Origin: Candidatus Aminicenantales bacterium
GTDB lineage: Bacteria; Acidobacteriota; Aminicenantia; Aminicenantales; UBA4085
Reading direction: 5' to 3'
DNA: 64,000 nucleotides
Assembly (NCBI GenBank): GCA_049697115.1
Contig: JBAVVD010000048.1
Location: forward strand, 18,151 to 82,150
In this document: piece after piece, positions 5,496-21,096 of the stretch
Position numbering within the stretch: position 1 is the stretch's first letter
Layout of the letters: every line of letters starts with the position of its first letter
Program-made: the position numbers and the translations under genes
The notes under the pieces: generated by a model
What the model was told of the DNA's origin: nothing
The model's database searches: none
The model's input: the letters and a program-made list of their open reading frames with translations, nothing else

Positions 5496-5524
5496 TTGAC
5501 TATCCATAATCGATTGTATACACT
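5496..5524 (+). promoter_or_regulatory. sigma-70-like promoter of the RelE/RHH TA module
   Basis: TTGACT (5496-5501), a 17-nt spacer, then TACACT (5519-5524). An AAGAGG RBS sits 7 nt upstream of the ATG at 5553. Confidence 0.45.
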
Positions 5525-5552
5525 GTATTACAATGTCATTAAGAGGTGCTTT

Positions 5553-5771
5553 ATGAATACAGTAATTTCAGTCAGGCTTCCCAAAGAACTTGCCGAACAA
5601 CTCGACAATATAGCCAGGGAAACAGAGAGACCACGCTCTTTCATCATACAAAAAGCCTTAGAGTCCTACATCGAAGATTTCGCGGATCTTCAGGTGGCAC
5701 TCGACCGTCTCCACGATAAAAGTGATCCTATCATTTCCGGCAAAGAGCTGAGGAAATCTCTTGGTCTATAA
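5553..5771 (+). CDS. ribbon-helix-helix (CopG/RelB-like) antitoxin
   Basis: The product begins MNTVISVRLPKELAEQLDNIARETERPRSFIIQKALESYIE, an RHH fold signature. It overlaps the downstream RelE-like gene by 11 nt. The listed ORF starts at 5496, but the RBS-supported start is 5553. Confidence 0.7.
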   Translation: MNTVISVRLPKELAEQLDNIARETERPRSFIIQKALESYIEDFADLQVALDRLHDKSDPIISGKELRKSLGL

Positions 5772-6021
5772 TATTGTCTACAAGAAATCAGTCCAACGCG
5801 ATCTCAAAAAGCTGTCAAAATCAGAGGCTAATCGTATTCTCGATCAAATAGAACAGGAGCTTTCAAAGAAACCGGAGTCAAATCCAGCCCTCAAAGGTCA
5901 ATTTGCCGGGCTTCGCAAATTTCGAGTTGGGGAATACAGGGTTATCTACGCATTATTGAGAACAGATGTTCTTATCCTGAGAGTCGGACATCAAAAGAAT
6001 ATCTATAAAAGCGAAATCTAA
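5761..6021 (+). CDS. RelE/ParE-family type II toxin
   Basis: The 86-aa product contains VQRDLKKL...GEYRVIYALLRTDVLILRVGHQKNIY, a RelE/StbE pattern. It is translationally coupled to the upstream RHH antitoxin. Confidence 0.8.
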   Translation: MVYNIVYKKSVQRDLKKLSKSEANRILDQIEQELSKKPESNPALKGQFAGLRKFRVGEYRVIYALLRTDVLILRVGHQKNIYKSEI

Positions 6022-6102
6022 CGCCGGGCATAACCGGTTTTAAAATGCGGGGGCATGAAATGCCGAAGCATTTTAAAATCCGTGTTAATGCCTTTGTTAG
6101 AC
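6016..6102. other. attC-like recombination site (imperfect palindrome)
   Basis: The site reads ATCTAAC(G)...cggttttaaaatgcg...cgaagcattttaaaatccg...GTTAGAC. The R''-like 7-mer is at 6016-6022 and the R'-like GTTAGAC at 6096-6102. It overlaps the RelE stop codon. Confidence 0.5.
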
Positions 6103-6194
6103 CTGTTTTTTGCATTTTATGATACCAAGCCATGTATTAACTGGATCTATATACAGCTCATCACCAAAACCCAGTTCAGCTCTTACAAGTTGCC

Positions 6195-6644
6195 TCAGGT
6201 TATTAGAGCAACTATAGGATTATCCGTATTGCCTGTCACTATCTCCAAGAAACATTTGATTATCTCATTATTATCTATCGTAATTAACAATTCATTATGG
6301 CATTGGCGGGCCTCAACTTCGGTGGTATACTGCTTGTCAATATTTACAGGCCTTCCGTCATTATCTTTGTTTATGATATGATTAAATTGTGCGTCTACAA
6401 TCGTAAGCAGTTTCATACAAGCGTTATATTTTAACTCATATTTTTTCTCGTTAATACGATCAAGTTTGTTTAAATCTATTTTTACAGATTCGACCTTCTG
6501 AGTAATATCCCTTATGTCTTCCTTGGTAGCAAGATTTTCTCCTTTTTTCTTTAGATAACTTGTAAGTGCATTCTTAATCAGTAAGGTTGCTATCCATATT
6601 CCGATGACTATTACTATGTTCAATATCAAAATAATGTAGTCCAT
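6195..6644 (-). CDS. hypothetical membrane-anchored protein (AT-rich cassette ORF)
   Basis: The ORF is open to 6689, but the internal Met (MDYIILILNIVIVIGIWIATLLI, TM helix) avoids overlap with the attC-like site at 6660-6748. I did not recognise a family. Confidence 0.35.
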   Translation of the reverse strand: MDYIILILNIVIVIGIWIATLLIKNALTSYLKKKGENLATKEDIRDITQKVESVKIDLNKLDRINEKKYELKYNACMKLLTIVDAQFNHIINKDNDGRPVNIDKQYTTEVEARQCHNELLITIDNNEIIKCFLEIVTGNTDNPIVALIT

Positions 6645-6659
6645 ATATTCTCCTTGAAG

Positions 6660-6748
6660 GTCTAACGTAAAACTAAGCCGCCCCGCCACAGACCTTTGCC
6701 AAAAACAAACCAGCTTTATTCCGGGTTGGCTTGAGTGATTCGTTAGAT
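6660..6748. other. attC-like site
   Basis: GTCTAAC (6660-6666) pairs with GTTAGAT (6742-6748). The outer stems are cTAACGtaaaACTaAGCC and GGCTtgAGTgattCGTTAG, around a variable centre. Confidence 0.5.
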
Positions 6749-6760
6749 TAGCAGTTCATT

Positions 6761-7213
6761 TTAACAGAAGCCATTTTTTTCTAAGAATTTGATGCCCTTT
6801 TTCAGAGCTTCTTTATATGCATTGCTTTTCCACCAGTTACCATGGCTGTGAATAAGACCGTTTCTCTTTGCATTGAAGTTATTTAGATTACTGTAATCGT
6901 CATAGTTTATTGCGCCCAAGAAATGAGACCATTTGATAAGTTTGTAAGTAGACGTATTAGCTTTGTCTTTTCCATTTTTGCTATTCTCAATTTTGGCCCT
7001 GACCTCAGTTTCTTTTTGATCTTTAAAGGTCTTAACTATTTTATCCCACAATATAGTTTCGATAGCGAGTTGAGCATGCACGAATGCTTCAATAGTTTGA
7101 TTTTTTTTCATCATGTCTCTTATAGCATTGGCGCATTTGTATCTAACGACTTGCAATCTCTCGCCGCCCTCAGCTAAATCAGAAACAGCCATGTCTCTTT
7201 TCTTCTTGTTCAT
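6761..7213 (-). CDS. hypothetical protein with RNxxxH (HEPN-like Rx4-6H) motif
   Basis: The 150-aa, AT-rich product contains the C-terminal motif AKRNGLIHSHG. It is bounded by attC-like sites on both sides. Confidence 0.45.
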   Translation of the reverse strand: MNKKKRDMAVSDLAEGGERLQVVRYKCANAIRDMMKKNQTIEAFVHAQLAIETILWDKIVKTFKDQKETEVRAKIENSKNGKDKANTSTYKLIKWSHFLGAINYDDYSNLNNFNAKRNGLIHSHGNWWKSNAYKEALKKGIKFLEKNGFC

Positions 7214-7225
7214 GTCATTTTTTCA

Positions 7226-7282
7226 ATCTAATGTGCTGATCAGCGGCGGCTGTAAGCCGTCCGCTGGATTAGCTTGTTGGGT
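7226..7282. other. attC-like site
   Basis: The site reads CTAATG...ctgatcagcggcggc tgtaa gccgtccgctgg...ATTAGc ttGTTGGGT. The GTTGGGT core is at 7276-7282. Its stem sequence is related to the sites at 8471 and 11457. Confidence 0.45.
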
Positions 7283-7285
7283 CTG

Positions 7286-7771
7286 TTACTCGTTGTATCC
7301 GGCCTGTTCTAACCTCCTGAGTAAAAGAGACGCGAGTGAGAGGTGATCCAAACATTGATCCGGCGAGTCGCTTATGGAGTATTCATGACCCCTCGGATTG
7401 CGAATTGCCAACATGGCACCCGCGAAAACGAACTGGAAGCCTCTCTGTTCGTCTTGTTCACTTGTCGTGATGTTTGCATTGAGCACCACGCTTGGGGACT
7501 TTCCTCCGAATGCCTGCATCATGAGCTTGAAACCTGCTTCAGTTGAGGCCACAATCTTCTGAATTAGTTTGTCCAGATACTTGAATGCTTCGAATGTTGC
7601 CTGTGAGTAGTGGCCGTTGTCGAATAGTGTTCGGACGATTTGTGGCAATGAATCATGGATATCCCTCTGCTCAAAGGGGTGTTGTATCCCGAGATCGCGC
7701 GCTTCAACTTGAGTAAAACGATATGCTTGGCGGGCAATCCGCTCAAATCGATTCAGACGTGCGTCAGCCAT
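7286..7771 (-). CDS. Abi_C / TIGR02391-like protein (HEPN-like, RNxxxH)
   Basis: The 161-aa product contains GAMLAIRNPRGHE (R-x4-H). It overlaps the upstream gene by 8 nt, so the two form a two-gene cassette. Confidence 0.55.
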   Translation of the reverse strand: MADARLNRFERIARQAYRFTQVEARDLGIQHPFEQRDIHDSLPQIVRTLFDNGHYSQATFEAFKYLDKLIQKIVASTEAGFKLMMQAFGGKSPSVVLNANITTSEQDEQRGFQFVFAGAMLAIRNPRGHEYSISDSPDQCLDHLSLASLLLRRLEQAGYNE

Positions 7772-8444
7772 TCAGGAGATTCTCTCTTATGCTTTTGAAG
7801 ATGCGATCGTAGGTCTCTTGTGTTCCCTCGGCTGGCAGATTGATCTCAATACGCACCGTTAGCCCAACGTCGCGAACCTTCAGACCTCCATTAACACCTG
7901 TCTTTGGTTCTGATTTTTCCTTTGCCTTTGTGACCTCCAGAGGAGTCGCTTTTGCCTGCTTCTTCTTTGGCTTTTTGTCGGCGTCGGTTTTGGATGTGCC
8001 TTTGGCTTCTGGTAACTCATGATGTCCTGACAGGCCGCTCAACGTTAGAAAGGTGTTCGCTTGCCGCTTGCCAACGATAGCACTTGATTGGTCGTTCTGT
8101 CGGAAGAAAGTGATGAGTTGGGATGAATTAAGACCCCAGGTCTTCTCACCGTGGAGCGCAAAGAGCTCCTTGTAGCCCGTTGTTACAAGCTGCGCAAAAG
8201 CTTTCTGGAAGTCTTTATCCTGATGCAGAGAAAATATTTTGCCTGCAGCTTCCGTTTTGCCGCCATCCTTGTCGATGAGGCCAAGGAACCGAAGTGTACT
8301 GATTATGTATGTTTCATTCTTTGGGGCGTAGCCCAACTTCTTCAACGTGTCTGCCGTTAATGATGCCGGAAATGAGCTACGGAGATGGTTTATCACCTGG
8401 ATCAAACCACCAGCGCTTGTTATGTACGGATGTTTGTCCGCCAT
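7764..8444 (-). CDS. hypothetical protein, partner of the Abi_C-like gene (Lys-rich linker; possibly DUF5343-like)
   Basis: The 226-aa product has a lysine-rich low-complexity linker (KKPKKKQAKATPLEVTKAKEK) between two globular parts. It is co-oriented with and overlaps 7286..7771. Confidence 0.45.
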   Translation of the reverse strand: MADKHPYITSAGGLIQVINHLRSSFPASLTADTLKKLGYAPKNETYIISTLRFLGLIDKDGGKTEAAGKIFSLHQDKDFQKAFAQLVTTGYKELFALHGEKTWGLNSSQLITFFRQNDQSSAIVGKRQANTFLTLSGLSGHHELPEAKGTSKTDADKKPKKKQAKATPLEVTKAKEKSEPKTGVNGGLKVRDVGLTVRIEINLPAEGTQETYDRIFKSIRENLLNG

Positions 8445-8470
8445 GTCATCTTCCTCCTTCTTTCTTTTTG

Positions 8471-8531
8471 ACCTAACGTTCCGGTTCAGCGGCAGCGCTT
8501 CCGCGCCGTCTGCTGAAACCGATTGTTAGGC
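8471..8531. other. attC-like site
   Basis: ACCTAACG (8471-8478)...ggttcagcggcagcgc ttcc gcgccgtctgctgaaacc...GTTAGGC (8525-8531), about 61 bp, the classic 59-be size. It overlaps the 3' end of the DUF4365 ORF. Confidence 0.6.
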
Positions 8532-9445
8532 TTCGATATCAAATAGCTCTTTGAAAGGAATGAAATCATGTGCAGCGCTGCCTCAATCTGCTGGCGTCGA
8601 ACCAGTGGCAGCGCCTCTGCGGCGAAGGTTACCTCGATGCCCGCAAACTCGTATCCAGCAGGCAGTTCACGAAGCTTCGGATATGCCATGCAGGCGTGCG
8701 CCTCGAAGGCGGCGAGCCAGGCCCCAATCTCTTTGTGCGCATCGCTGCCGCTAGCCAACAATGAATGCAGTGAGCGTACAGCGGCGAGAGCGTCTCTATA
8801 CTGACACTGCTCGTGCAGCACGAAGAACAGCGCGTCGTGATCTCTGCGAAGCAGGTCAGCAGCATTGGGTTGATTCGGCGCATGGTCGAGTGCCACAAGA
8901 TTCTGCACAGCAACCGCAAGTGCCTCGACAGTGGGAATCAACCTTGCAGCCGAACGGGCCGCATCCAGCGCGGCCCTTAGATTACCATAGTGTCGCTTGA
9001 GGCTATCTTTGATCGCGTCCCATCCTTTCGCGTCAAGCACATTCTGCACTGGGATGCGGATAGACAACGTCTGACTGGCGCAGCTAATCACCTCAGCTGG
9101 TGATGCGAATAGGTCGAGATGCCACGAATACCAAGCACGTCCGTATCCGATGTCTACTGCGATAACAAGCGTAGGCTGGGGCGAAGCAAACCAATAGAAG
9201 ACGGATGAACGAGGTATGCCAGACTTGATAACCCAGCCATCGCGAATCGTTGGATTCTCGGTTGTCTTTACCTGCACCGAGAACTCAGTATTGTGCAATG
9301 GCGAGTGATCGCGAATAACAACCAAACCGTCCTTGCCCACATCACGGCGAGGGGGCTGCCATATCCAGCCTACTGGAAGCTGAGACGCGAACCAGAACTC
9401 CCCTTGGTCGCCGACAGCCCAGTTGCTTTGTCGTTTCGATTCCAT
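8486..9445 (-). CDS. DUF4365-like (PD-(D/E)xK nuclease-like) protein
   Basis: The N-terminal AVGDQGEFWFASQLPVGWIWQPPRRDVGKDGLVVI resembles the DUF4365 GE...GW...D.GiD signature. The gene is roughly 60% GC, far above its neighbours, which indicates foreign origin. Its start codon is only 13 nt from the core site at 9459-9465. Confidence 0.55.
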   Translation of the reverse strand: MESKRQSNWAVGDQGEFWFASQLPVGWIWQPPRRDVGKDGLVVIRDHSPLHNTEFSVQVKTTENPTIRDGWVIKSGIPRSSVFYWFASPQPTLVIAVDIGYGRAWYSWHLDLFASPAEVISCASQTLSIRIPVQNVLDAKGWDAIKDSLKRHYGNLRAALDAARSAARLIPTVEALAVAVQNLVALDHAPNQPNAADLLRRDHDALFFVLHEQCQYRDALAAVRSLHSLLASGSDAHKEIGAWLAAFEAHACMAYPKLRELPAGYEFAGIEVTFAAEALPLVRRQQIEAALHMISFLSKSYLISKPNNRFQQTARKRCR

Positions 9446-9458
9446 CGCTAGTTCGTAA

Positions 9459-9610
9459 GCCTAACTATTAATATACCGCATGCTGTATTTGATACAGATC
9501 TCCCTTCATTGACGTCGTATATTATGTGATTCCATCAAATATCCCCGCAAAGTTGCAGTATTATTTTAAAATTAACCATATTAAATTGCAAGTTGTATAT
9601 TTTACGACGG
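9459..9610 (+). repeat. attI-like/platform repeat copy A (about 150 bp, AT-rich)
   Basis: Copy A begins at the core GCCTAAC (9459-9465). It is about 80% identical to the reverse complement of 10435-10592 (copy B) and shares its first 50 bp with copy C at 19286. It contains a TTGCAA-N17-TAAAAT promoter on the minus strand. Confidence 0.7.
9563..9591 (-). promoter_or_regulatory. outward-facing sigma-70-like promoter inside repeat A (candidate cassette promoter)
   Basis: On the minus strand: TTGCAA (9586-9591), a 17-nt spacer, then TAAAAT (9563-9568). It reads toward the DUF4365 cassette run. Confidence 0.45.
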
Positions 9611-9682
9611 AATTATCCAGCCCGAAAGAGTTGCTTGAACAATAATCAAAAAAACCTCATCGAGTTTGAAGATTTTATAAAG

Positions 9683-10341
9683 CAGTTCCGATTGTCTTAA
9701 CTCGTGAAGAGGTTCATCGCCTCTTTTCCTTTCTTGAGGGGCCCTATCTTCTCATGTCTCAATTGCTCTATGGAAGCGGCCTCCATCTTCTGGAATGCAT
9801 ACAATTGAGAGTCAAGGACATCGATTTTGCCAATAATTTGCTAGTCATTCGGGCGGGAAAAGGAGAGAAAGACAGAACCACCATACTGGCGGACAAGATC
9901 AAGGAGTCTCTGAAAGCCCATTTGAAGAGAATCAAGAAGTTGCATGACCAGGATTTGGCAAAAGGATACAGGGGGACAACGCTTCCTGATGCCCTGGAGA
10001 AAAAATATCCGAATGCCAATAAAGAATGGGCCTGGCAATGGGTGTTCCCCTCGAAAAGCCTGGTGGTCCATCCTAGGAGCGGCAGGGTCATGCGTCATCA
10101 TATCCAACCCAGTACGCTTCAAAGGATGATAAAAGACGCTCTAAGAAAATCGAAGATTTCAAAACCTGCAAGCTGTCACACGCTGCGGCACAGTTTCGCT
10201 ACGCATCTTCTGGAAGCAGGGCATAATATCCGAACGATCCAGGAACTCATGGGCCATAAGAACGTGAATACCACGATGATATACACTCATGTGGCTCGAA
10301 AGAGTTATTCGGACATTTCTAGCCCTTTGGACAAACTGTAA
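9683..10341 (+). pseudogene. intI: integron integrase IntI remnant (5'-truncated; catalytic box I Arg replaced by His)
   Basis: The frame is open from the TGA at 9680. PIVLTREEVHRLFLFLEGPYLLMSQLLYGSGLHLLE...ALEKKYPNANKEWAWQWVFPS...HTLRHSFATHLLEAGHNIRTIQELMGHKNVNTTMIYTHV aligns with IntI1 from about residue 115 to the C-terminus, including the IntI-specific insertion. The first 100 or so codons are missing, and the upstream homologous sequence is interrupted by stops. GMRISE is replaced by GLHLLE. Confidence 0.8.
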
Positions 10342-10434
10342 GAAATGCCGAAAAGACTAAGCGGTTGTTTCCGAGATATCTCACGCTCCGTAAAACTTCC
10401 GCGGCTATCTGGTAAATAATCGCTCCTCTGATGG

Positions 10435-10592
10435 ATATTTGAGTCGTCAAATATACGACTTGCAATTTAATATGGATATTTTTAAGATAAGACTGCAATT
10501 TTGATGGGATATTTGATGGAATCACATAATATGCGACGTTAAAAAAGGAAGATTTGCATCAAATACAGCATGCTGTATAGTAATAGTTATGC
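10435..10592 (-). repeat. attI-like/platform repeat copy B (inverted copy of A)
   Basis: The reverse complement aligns with copy A over about 150 bp. Its outer end is GTTATGC (10586-10592), 42 nt before the ATG at 10634. Confidence 0.7.
10460..10488 (+). promoter_or_regulatory. outward-facing sigma-70-like promoter inside repeat B
   Basis: TTGCAA (10460-10465), a 17-nt spacer, then TAAGAT (10483-10488). It reads toward the right-hand cassette run. Confidence 0.45.
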
Positions 10593-11936: not shown

Positions 11937-12032
11937 GTCTAACCCGGCGCTGCAGCTGGCGGATCACCGTCACGGCCTTTGCAGCCGCAAGGCCCGTGCC
12001 AGGACCCGCAGCTGAGCGCCAGTCCGTTAGGC
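11937..12032. other. attC-like site
   Basis: GTCTAAC (11937-11943)...ccggcgctgcagctggcgg...ccgcagctgagcgccag...CGTTAGGC (12026-12032), about 96 bp. Confidence 0.6.
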
Positions 12033-17811: not shown

Positions 17812-17901
17812 ACATAACGGCGAAGCTCACCGGCGGCGAAACGTAGCGGAGAGAACCGAAAAGCGAAGCTTTTTGGCGTCCGATTGACCGATTTGTTAGC
17901 G
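17812..17901. other. attC-like site
   Basis: ACATAAC (17812-17818)...GC-rich imperfect palindrome...GTTAGCG (17895-17901). Confidence 0.4.
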
Positions 17902-18342
17902 CTGCTCAATAATTTTCCTTTTGACTTCTTGAACTTCGCCGTAGACTTGAAGTGTCCTCATTACTAGAGGTTTTGTCCTGGTCTTCAAGTCCGAAAGGCG
18001 AGTATACTCGTTTTTTATATATTCTTTGTCAGACTGCTCTTCAAAGGTTATGATGTAAGCCTGATGCACTAGCTTGTTTCTCTCTTTTTGGAGAGGTCGA
18101 AGCTTTTTTACTAAGTCATGATCGGCATTAATCTTTACGAATCGATCCAAGAGCTTTCCAAGTGGTTCATTTTCGACATCCTTCCAACCATATTTGAACG
18201 GCACGACTCCCTTGACTTTAGTAGCGATGATTAAATAGGTCTCCGCTATATACAGCTTTAATCCTAACTCAATGAATTGAAAGTCAAGAAGTATTTTCTG
18301 AACTAAATCCAAATATTCAGTGATTGATCTATCTTTGACCAT
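17896..18342 (-). CDS. hypothetical protein with RNxxxH (HEPN-like) motif
   Basis: The 148-aa, AT-rich product contains QKERNKLVHQAY. It is bounded by attC-like sites. Confidence 0.4.
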   Translation of the reverse strand: MVKDRSITEYLDLVQKILLDFQFIELGLKLYIAETYLIIATKVKGVVPFKYGWKDVENEPLGKLLDRFVKINADHDLVKKLRPLQKERNKLVHQAYIITFEEQSDKEYIKNEYTRLSDLKTRTKPLVMRTLQVYGEVQEVKRKIIEQR

Positions 18343-18365
18343 AATAAGGCACCCACTTCTTAGGT

Positions 18366-18424
18366 GCTAACGTGACAAGTGAGGCATGCATGTTACAGCA
18401 TCGCCTCGACTTGGTTTGTTAGCG
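18366..18424. other. attC-like site
   Basis: GCTAACG (18366-18372)...catgcatg...GTTAGCG (18418-18424). Confidence 0.5.
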
Positions 18425-19285: not shown

Positions 19286-19450
19286 CGCTAACTATTAATA
19301 TATTACATGCAGTAAAATGTGAAAAAAACTATTGAAAAAACGTCTTTTCATTGAGGAAGCCATCGATCAACACCTTAAGAATGCTGTAATGTTGTAATAT
19401 ATCTCATGTTATATTACAAGCTGTATATCTAATTTTTCCAATATTCGGCA
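19286..19450 (+). repeat. attI-like/platform repeat copy C (diverged)
   Basis: CGCTAACtattaatatattacatgcagta matches the first 35 bp of copy A, with patchy similarity after that. It abuts the start of the DUF3800 gene with an AGGAAG RBS. Confidence 0.5.
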
Positions 19451-19798: not shown

Positions 19799-20935
19799 AT
19801 GAAAAGATCAATCCTCGTCGCAACGACTTCCTTACTTTTGATCGGCCATTTGTTTGGAATGACTGATGAAAACACAGCCGGGAAAATTCCTTTTAAAAAA
19901 ATCGCTTATTTTATCTTGGTCACAACAAAAATCAACGATTCCAAGAATGATTACAACTTTATCATTGATACGGGAGGCGTTGCTCTGATTGATAAAGCGG
20001 TCGTTCAAGAACTCGGTCTCAAACAACGCGGACCGATGGCAAAAATAACAACTCTCAATTTGTCTGGATATCAAATAGAAAATGTCTTTTGCTTTACAAC
20101 CTTTGATTTTAACATTTTTAGACAATTAGGGACTCCAATACATGGGATTATCGGGTCAAATCTTATGGAAAGGTTTAAGGTGACGATTGACTTCCAATCA
20201 TGCTCTATCATTTTTTCAACGGATACCACATCCTTGACACCGCCTGATAATGGTATCTTTTTTACCTTTCGGAATCATCCGGTCAATAACGCTCCAATAA
20301 TCAAATTTAAAGTCAATCAGAAAATCATTGAAGGAATGATCGATACGGGTCAGCCTTACCCTGTGGTTTTACCGCTCAAAGATTTTGAACAATATGAAAA
20401 GTCCAACAATCCCGTTTCAATTCGATCGAAAGGTCTAATGATAAAATGGCCACAGACGACTCCGCAATATAATTATTTGACAAGATTAAAATCATGTGAA
20501 TTTGGAAGTTTAAAAATTACGGATGCCCTGGGCATCTTTGGAGAACTGCCTCCCCTGCTCTCAATGCCATTAATTGGTACAGATTTATTATCTCAATTTA
20601 AAATAATTATTAACTATCCCAAGGATGAAATGCTGTTCATTCCAAATCCAGATATTCATTTTGAGAACAATCAATTTTCTCTTGGTTTAAATCTAAATCT
20701 ATCAGAAAAAGATGAAATTTGGGTAGAGGGTGTATGGGAAAATTCTCCTGCGGATAAAGCCAATATACAAGTTGGAGATCAAGTTATTGCATTCAATTCG
20801 AAAAAAGTCACTCCTGAAAATTTGATCGAACTGATGGAAATGATGAAAGATGACCATATAGAATCGATACATTTAGAAATAAAAAATCAAAACGGAATAA
20901 GAAAATTGAAATTAAATAAAACAATGCTGTTTTAA
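19799..20935 (+). CDS. secreted pepsin-like (clan AA) aspartic protease with C-terminal PDZ domain
   Basis: The product has a signal peptide and two DTG motifs (IIDTGGVALI and MIDTGQPYPV), indicating a single-chain pseudo-dimer. The C-terminal PDZ-like stretch reads GVWENSPADKANIQVGDQVIAFN. The gene is AT-rich. Confidence 0.55.
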   Translation: MKRSILVATTSLLLIGHLFGMTDENTAGKIPFKKIAYFILVTTKINDSKNDYNFIIDTGGVALIDKAVVQELGLKQRGPMAKITTLNLSGYQIENVFCFTTFDFNIFRQLGTPIHGIIGSNLMERFKVTIDFQSCSIIFSTDTTSLTPPDNGIFFTFRNHPVNNAPIIKFKVNQKIIEGMIDTGQPYPVVLPLKDFEQYEKSNNPVSIRSKGLMIKWPQTTPQYNYLTRLKSCEFGSLKITDALGIFGELPPLLSMPLIGTDLLSQFKIIINYPKDEMLFIPNPDIHFENNQFSLGLNLNLSEKDEIWVEGVWENSPADKANIQVGDQVIAFNSKKVTPENLIELMEMMKDDHIESIHLEIKNQNGIRKLKLNKTMLF

Positions 20936-21029: not shown

Positions 21030-21096
21030 CACGTTTATATGTTTTGTGGAATCACATCAATCGGGACGTAACTCTCGGCATTTCAACCGGTTATGC
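21030..21096 (-). repeat. attI-like/platform repeat copy D (partial, B orientation)
   Basis: atatgttttgtggaatcacatcaatcgggacgt matches copy B (atatttgatggaatcacataatatgcgacgt). It ends at GTTATGC (21090-21096), the same core as copy B, 40 nt before the VOC gene. Confidence 0.45.

Follow-up and report, generated by a model that had tools for sequence, protein, structure and literature searches.

Our analysis showed that the second cassette of a decayed integron in a Candidatus Aminicenantales genome is an obligate two-gene module, in which a gene for a DUF5343 protein is followed by an overlapping gene for a predicted HEPN effector of the Ymh family. We studied a stretch of 64,000 nucleotides (nt) of this genome (contig JBAVVD010000048.1, positions 18,151 to 82,150), hereafter the window. 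A sequence-only reading had singled out four of its open reading frames (ORFs), three of them with an R-N-x3-H (RNxxxH) motif of HEPN ribonucleases (RNases). It had proposed that two of the four form a toxin/partner or sensor/effector pair coupled within one cassette, and that the array is a candidate defence island. All four ORFs are present, on the minus strand and at the positions it gave:

7764..8444, minus strand: DUF5343 partner, 226 amino acids (aa), overlapping the Ymh gene by 8 nt
7286..7771, minus strand: Ymh-family HEPN protein, 161 aa, predicted RNase effector or toxin, with RNPRGH at residues 124-129
6761..7213, minus strand: single-gene cassette protein, 150 aa, with RNGLIH at residues 117-122
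17896..18342, minus strand: single-gene cassette protein, 148 aa, candidate minimal stand-alone HEPN, with RNKLVH at residues 88-93

The evidence for the module comes from the association of the two genes across genomes. In the window they overlap at ATGGCTGA, with no attC in between, which bears out their coupling within one cassette. Scanning one genome per species, we found DUF5343 in 246 species and retrieved 80 loci, and at every one of the 80 a Ymh gene immediately follows DUF5343; a Ymh gene of about 160 aa is also the next gene in four out of four unrelated contigs. When searched from the Ymh side, at 72 viral or metagenomic loci where the sequence reaches far enough upstream, DUF5343 ends at the Ymh start in 71. 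The 78 complete pairs all overlap by at least 8 nt; with one exception the overlap is 8-20 nt long, and it measures 8 nt in 40 pairs and 11 nt in 21. RNPxxH is kept in 76 of these 78, and the pairwise distances of DUF5343 and Ymh are correlated (r = 0.69). No recurrent third gene was found beside the pair among 143 neighbouring ORFs searched with Pfam, PADLOC and all-against-all BLAST. These neighbours are mostly singletons, many of them housekeeping enzymes, with a few integrases, Mrr enzymes, methyltransferases and transposases. Given this strict pairing without a recurrent third gene, the unit is an autonomous, mobile two-gene module, and the proposed toxin/partner or sensor/effector pair is strongly supported as a conserved two-gene unit. 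Its two small, co-directional, overlapping genes, inherited together, have a layout like that of type II toxin-antitoxin systems. At individual loci, the pair has defence-type genes beside it: a HEPN_RiboL-PSP gene directly upstream (L002:3102-3878), an Mrr gene (L004), or an MmeI_C fragment, an N6_N4 methyltransferase and a ResIII helicase (L095:1355-3854).

The module also moves as a unit. The pair carried by another array, L092, is 91% identical to that of the window, and its cassette is the only one common to the two. Homology begins exactly at GTTAGGTCA, runs through the attC hairpin and ends after GATCAGCAC. Because it is confined to this cassette, both genes must move as one integron cassette. 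The cassette context put forward from the sequence is thus borne out by attC hairpins, by a truncated integron integrase and by the comparison of cassette boundaries with other arrays: the ORFs are bounded by attC, the integrase and an attI-like site are adjacent, and homology breaks at the cassette boundaries.

By its profile matches, the Ymh protein is a clear, full-length member of its family. It matches Pfam PF09509 (Hypoth_Ymh) over profile positions 1-119 of 119 (E = 1.2e-29, 103 bits against a cutoff of 25). Of the two labels that it had been given, TIGR02391 was correct (81.1 bits, cutoff 39.45) and Abi_C-like has to be replaced by Ymh, since there was no PF14355 match up to E = 1. Residues R124, N125, P126 and H129 are invariant across 61 Ymh orthologues that are partners of DUF5343. 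Among PADLOC models, its matches include the C-terminal region of PD-Lambda-3_B (1.9e-15, profile positions 125-263 of 270) and Aga_HEPN, the model of an Argonaute-associated HEPN protein (2.1e-12). The passages on Ymh returned by a term search of a survey of HEPN proteins (Anantharaman et al. 2013, PMC3710099) list it as a HEPN family with a conserved Rx4-6H and describe solo proteins and fusions, often near restriction-modification genes; these passages make no mention of a DUF5343 operon partner. In the literature searched, we found no biochemical test of any Ymh member and no mention of DUF5343, PF17278 or PDC-M34; on how PDC systems are defined, it yielded just papers that apply PADLOC. 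The parts, HEPN effectors and integron cassettes, are of known kinds, and the obligate DUF5343-Ymh pairing was not found described in that literature.

Ymh can be regarded as the effector of the pair because of what replaces its motif in one genome. In a metagenome-assembled genome of an uncultured Fibrobacter sp. (CAYYNL010000323.1; L066:793-2124), the Ymh partner of DUF5343 has 443 aa, and an MTA/SAH-nucleosidase (PNP-like) domain of about 280 aa stands in place of the RNxxxH loop, with the flanking Ymh helices kept. This domain matches the CBASS-type 'Effector PN-superfamily' model of PADLOC (1.5e-18). The same locus has a second, divergent DUF5343-like gene at 2147-2458, after the Ymh partner.

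The partner protein matches DUF5343 (PF17278) over profile positions 1-133 of 140 (E = 2e-13, 51.2 bits against a gathering cutoff of 27), and the PADLOC model PDC-M34A over its full length (2.9e-25). There are about 2,000 DUF5343 homologues, and the best 120 of them all have 212-249 aa with DUF5343 as their single domain. The AlphaFold model has a mean predicted local distance difference test score (pLDDT) of 78 overall and above 90 over residues 11-140. It shows a winged helix, comprising three helices (11-23, 31-37 and 44-53) and a hairpin (about 57-63), and a four-helix bundle (residues 65-138), which together make up a domain of residues 1-140. A disordered linker follows at about 148-189; it is rich in lysine, with 13 in 54 residues, as had been noticed from the sequence. 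The protein ends in a conserved peptide (195-224) that includes a helix (209-224). Column identity in the alignment is about 0.8 over the C-terminal 30 residues, equal to that of the winged helix, and 0.1-0.3 over the linker. A type II antitoxin is classically built of a folded head that binds nucleic acid, a flexible tether and a short conserved tail, and its gene lies just upstream of a toxin-like gene and overlaps it. The modelled build of DUF5343 resembles such an antitoxin, and a sensor or an adaptor would fit it equally well.

The RNxxxH motif occurs in exactly three of the window ORFs of at least 100 aa (27,544 aa in all), where about 1.2 occurrences are expected by chance, as estimated from typical residue frequencies. 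The motif count alone is weak, and the case therefore rests on conservation within each family. RNxxxH is invariant or nearly so in all three, which agrees with the Rx4-6H motif of HEPN proteins, in which a polar residue commonly follows the arginine; the site is a predicted metal-independent RNase centre. It lies near the C-terminus, as first described, in 6761..7213 (residues 117-122 of 150) and in the Ymh protein (124-129 of 161), and is central in 17896..18342 (88-93 of 148). Profile searches neither placed the motifs outside a HEPN-like helical context nor assigned any of the proteins to an unrelated housekeeping family. For Ymh the HEPN assignment follows from Pfam and from the survey cited above, and for 6761..7213 more weakly from sub-threshold matches in its relatives.

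For 6761..7213 we found 16 homologues, in which R117, N118 and H122 are nearly invariant. Three of them match RiboL-PSP-HEPN (PF18735) along nearly all of the protein, at about 1e-5 and 25.8 bits against a gathering cutoff of 28.4, and there are also weak family matches to HepT-like, DUF3644 and CARF_HEPN profiles. We consider it probable that 6761..7213 is a HEPN protein, distantly like RiboL-PSP-HEPN. In one homologue, P0134, the HEPN-like domain is preceded by a fused HARE-HTH domain at the N-terminus (PF05066, 2.9e-20), a single-protein parallel to the combination of winged helix and HEPN in DUF5343-Ymh.

The family of 17896..18342 is larger, with seven close homologues and 470 representatives at E <= 1e-3. 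RNxxxH is present in 136 of 149 retrieved homologues, and an alignment of 114 sequences shows E25 and R88 invariant and Q22, N89 and H93 at least 90% conserved. HEPN_RiboL-PSP is matched by 33 of these 114 members, below the gathering cutoff (best E = 1.1e-5), and other members match Csm6-HEPN, Abi_2, MAE_28990 HEPN and AbiU2. The predicted structure is confident, with a pLDDT of 94.4 and a predicted template modelling score (pTM) of 0.88, and in it helix 3 ends with the motif. In a Foldseek search of the PDB, HEPN toxins rank as its top six matches, at E about 0.5, so not significant. Neither 6761..7213 nor 17896..18342 itself has a PF18735 match or any Pfam match above threshold, and their profile matches suggest that the kinship of both families with PF18735 is distant and short of membership. 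The interpolated profile position of RNxxxH, about 150-154, is alike in both families and in a true PF18735 member, that of locus L002. Both proteins appear to be new members of the HEPN superfamily, and the three RNxxxH proteins are best treated, on present alignments, as separate HEPN families. No conserved neighbour of either single-gene protein was found, and single-gene cassettes leave no room for a second gene; these proteins would presumably be latent RNases acting as dimers, alone and without a conserved partner. A TIR/SEFIR protein is encoded directly upstream of a 17896..18342 homologue at L089:2210-2848.

How might the module work? We think it probable that Ymh is a latent HEPN RNase to which DUF5343 binds by its C-terminal peptide, thereby silencing or directing it. 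The two proteins would be made together and form a complex, in which the conserved peptide of DUF5343 docks on the HEPN domain and inhibits or directs it in the manner of a type II antitoxin or an abortive-infection (Abi) sensor. The RNase would be set free when DUF5343 is lost or is engaged by a trigger, for example a foreign nucleic acid or protein. Its toxicity would then lie in RNA cleavage leading to growth arrest or abortive infection, and the same cleavage might also stabilise the cassette array, so that the module could serve in defence, in cassette retention or in both. More tentatively, since we put this somewhat below even odds, DUF5343-Ymh pairs may be undescribed and widespread two-gene conflict modules, present in at least 246 species of more than 10 phyla. 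In these, a protein made of winged helix, tether and docking peptide would control an exchangeable effector, nearly always a HEPN RNase and, in Fibrobacter, a nucleosidase inserted in the same scaffold, with the whole travelling as a single cassette. If true, DUF5343-Ymh would form a new family of toxin-antitoxin or abortive-infection systems, whose antitoxin or sensor would itself be of a new kind.

Several observations weigh against the proposal of a latent RNase held by its partner. Elsewhere the pair sits mostly among housekeeping genes, and defence or mobile-element genes are a handful of its 143 neighbours, so that the signal of a defence island is weak outside this window. From viral contigs the pair is nearly absent, with 2 loci, though this is neutral on defence. 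The promoter scan revealed no promoter inside the DUF5343-Ymh cassette, and lack of an own promoter is unusual for autoregulated type II toxin-antitoxin systems. PDB searches detected by sequence no solved relative of Ymh or DUF5343, and Ymh has no PDC-M34B match at E <= 1 in PADLOC. As for the other RNxxxH proteins, comparisons with hhalign among the three families (A1, A5 and A4) gave nothing significant, with the motif region alone aligned between A1 and A5 (E = 0.026), and the evidence for 6761..7213 is sub-threshold. PDB sequence searches with all four proteins and their profiles returned nothing meaningful. The array may be a defence island, and we keep this label conditional because in other genomes the pair mostly has housekeeping genes around it.

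Some of these observations fit other explanations. DUF5343 might be a targeting or activating subunit, whose winged helix and lysine-rich linker bind nucleic acid and recruit Ymh, the two making a constitutive nuclease without a toxin-antitoxin or Abi switch, for instance in restriction-like surveillance of RNA or DNA or in RNA processing. The lack of a promoter or operator in the cassette agrees with this, as do the restriction-modification neighbours Mrr (L004) and MmeI_C, N6_N4_Mtase and ResIII (L095), which recall the association reported for Ymh in PMC3710099. Yet most loci lack such a neighbour, and two features of the pair are typically seen in antitoxins: the partner gene comes first and overlaps the effector gene, and a disordered linker leads to a conserved C-terminal peptide. 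We regard such a nuclease as unlikely. We give a still smaller chance to a plain addiction module that stabilises the cassette array or other genomic islands without a role in phage defence. Toxin-antitoxin cassettes do occur in this array (ParE/RHH at 5496..6021) and in related ones (BrnT/CopG in L086 and L092, Gp49/HTH in L091), and housekeeping genes surround the module in most genomes. However, addiction does not exclude abortive infection, PD-Lambda-3_B and Argonaute-associated HEPN models share the Ymh domain, and defence effectors are typically exchanged in the way seen in Fibrobacter with its nucleosidase.

A further doubt concerns the single-gene cassettes. The protein 6761..7213, and with lesser likelihood 17896..18342, might be a non-catalytic helical protein in which RNxxxH is a conserved structural or binding motif. 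Both proteins fall below Pfam thresholds, the alignments between families were not significant, and a partnerless stand-alone toxin is hard to maintain. But the motif residues are the most conserved positions in both families, and the sub-threshold matches concentrate on several different HEPN families, which makes this explanation quite improbable to us.

The setting of these cassettes is the promoter-proximal part of a decayed sedentary (chromosomal) integron, with the following features:

9670..10341, plus strand: truncated integron integrase (TIGR02249, 324.7 bits against a cutoff of 265, profile positions 96-315 of 315)
9459..9619, minus strand: attI-like site and Pc-like promoter region (GTTAGGC at 9465..9459, read from the sequence)
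9464..8477, minus strand: cassette 1, DUF4365 protein
8476..7232, minus strand: cassette 2, DUF5343 and Ymh
7231..6666, minus strand: cassette 3, the 150-aa protein 6761..7213
6665..6022, minus strand: cassette 4, a 164-aa membrane-anchored protein
from 6021, plus strand (inverted; genes 5496..6021): cassette 5, ParE/RHH toxin-antitoxin
8471..8531, minus strand: attC of the DUF4365 cassette (R'' GCCTAAC 8531..8525, R' GTTAGGT 8477..8471; hairpin z = -3.5)
7226..7282, minus strand: attC of the DUF5343-Ymh cassette (R'' ACCCAAC 7282..7276; hairpin z = -5.7)
6660..6748, minus strand: attC of the 6761..7213 cassette (R'' ATCTAAC, R' GTTAGAC; R'' pairs with R' in the fold)
18365..18424, minus strand: attC upstream of 17896..18342, belonging to the DUF3800 cassette (CGCTAAC ... 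GTTAGCA; hairpin z = -5.2)

The integrase gene is truncated, because its match does not begin until profile position 96 and the gene is preceded by stop codons; about 95 N-terminal residues are gone. Promoter-like sites, such as 9591->9563, stand on the minus strand ahead of the array, and the Pc-like region would be expected from its sequence to drive the DUF4365 cassette, DUF5343-Ymh and then 6761..7213. The integrase gene is flanked by a 161-nt inverted repeat (9459..9619 and 10432..10592, 86% identity), and thus by two attI-like, promoter-bearing segments facing outward. Cassette-like genes run away from it in both directions, to the left on the minus strand and to the right on the plus strand (e.g. 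the plus-strand attC 11937..12032). Short copies of the attI-like segment (19288..19314 and 21039..21069, 85% and 74% identity) bracket a gene at 19799..20935. This gene was considered as a second, intact intI and rejected, since its product is a PDZ/aspartyl-protease-like protein. The minus-strand array with DUF3800 and 17896..18342 hence starts at an attI-like site without an adjacent intI.

The attC sites are of uneven quality. The R' core of the DUF5343-Ymh site, ATTAGAT, is degenerate in that position 7232 has A in place of G. The core there reads CATTAGAT, and arrays L086 and L091 have GCGTTAGAT at that junction; this change from G to A affects the crossover base and might keep the junction of cassettes 2 and 3 from moving. 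The 6761..7213 cassette recurs in these two arrays with its attC conserved along with it, homology extending from (G)TTAGATTGAAA to CGTTAG in attC, with divergence after CGTTAG. Downstream of 17896..18342, a candidate site (about 17812..17901) has a fold that is not attC-like. A strict regex-and-fold scan found no attC in L086, L089 and L091, but it also missed the degenerate sites of the window, and the alignment of cassette flanks was more informative.

Pfam searches agreed with the earlier naming of DUF4365 and DUF3800. The DUF4365 protein of cassette 1 (8486..9445, minus strand, 319 aa) has its stop codon within its own attC. A further match of this protein is to the nuclease part, at the N-terminus, of Aga_REase-PNTD1-PNTD2, an Argonaute-associated model of PADLOC (3.8e-7). 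The protein of cassette 4 (6195..6689, minus strand, 164 aa) has one N-terminal hydrophobic helix and is helical in the rest, and no family match was found for it in Pfam, NCBIfam and PADLOC. The ParE toxin and RHH antitoxin cassette (5496..6021, plus strand) is inverted and takes the fifth position of the array. Toxin-antitoxin pairs also occur in related arrays, as BrnT/CopG in L086 and L092 and as Gp49/HTH_3 in L091.

HEPN RNases are central effectors in toxin-antitoxin, abortive-infection and CRISPR-linked immunity. The strict pairing of DUF5343 and Ymh gives a concrete and cheaply testable hypothesis for a module present in hundreds of species; it is well defined, and no surprise in kind. 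The single-gene HEPN cassettes, being partnerless, raise the question of how such proteins stay harmless. Phage defence on integron cassettes is already known (bioRxiv 10.1101/2024.07.02.601719), and the array adds an environmental, non-proteobacterial example to the integron cassettes that store defence or toxin genes.

Among known systems, two resemble the module in one of its halves. The PADLOC candidate PDC-M34 does so through its component A, which is matched by the DUF5343 partner. The model of its component B matches one unrelated ORF among the 143 neighbours, and ten candidates scanned singly gave no match. PDC-M34 thus appears to combine a related, DUF5343-like protein with another partner, and the pair is not PDC-M34 in the form that PADLOC catalogues. 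PD-lambda-3, as represented in PADLOC, is reportedly an abortive-infection system, described by Vassallo and colleagues in 2022. It resembles the module through the C-terminal half of PD-Lambda-3_B, which matches the Ymh protein. It differs in that its HEPN domain is fused to an N-terminal domain of its own and paired with a PD-(D/E)XK nuclease gene (PMC10952713), whereas the Ymh protein is stand-alone, with 161 aa, and paired with DUF5343. Moreover, DUF5343 matches no PD-Lambda-3 model, and component A is unmatched in the partner and in the array ORFs scanned. PD-lambda-3 has been used as an abortive-infection control (PMC13190303).

Other comparisons concern HEPN proteins with other partners or none. 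HEPN-MNT (HepT-MntA, type VII; PDB 7ae2 and 5yep), RnlA-RnlB and LsoA-LsoB are, like the module, HEPN toxins with a protein partner. In contrast to HEPN-MNT, the partner here lacks a nucleotidyltransferase domain, DUF5343 being its single Pfam match, and has a winged helix and a lysine-rich linker instead; there is also no recurrent nucleotidyltransferase among the 143 neighbouring ORFs. Unlike all three systems, 6761..7213 and 17896..18342 have no partner. RiboL-PSP-HEPN, reported in PD-T4-2, PD-T4-5, PD-T7-3 and ApeA (PMC10952713), is the nearest profile for both single-gene families and has RNxxxH in the same profile region. The cassette proteins differ from those defence proteins by being minimal (about 150 aa), without their N-terminal extensions, and by matching below the gathering score. 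The AbiJ-type architecture, given in PMC3710099 as an N-terminal sensor domain plus HEPN, is like the module in that a probably target-binding, non-catalytic part is combined with a HEPN effector, but in DUF5343-Ymh the two parts are separate, translationally coupled proteins.

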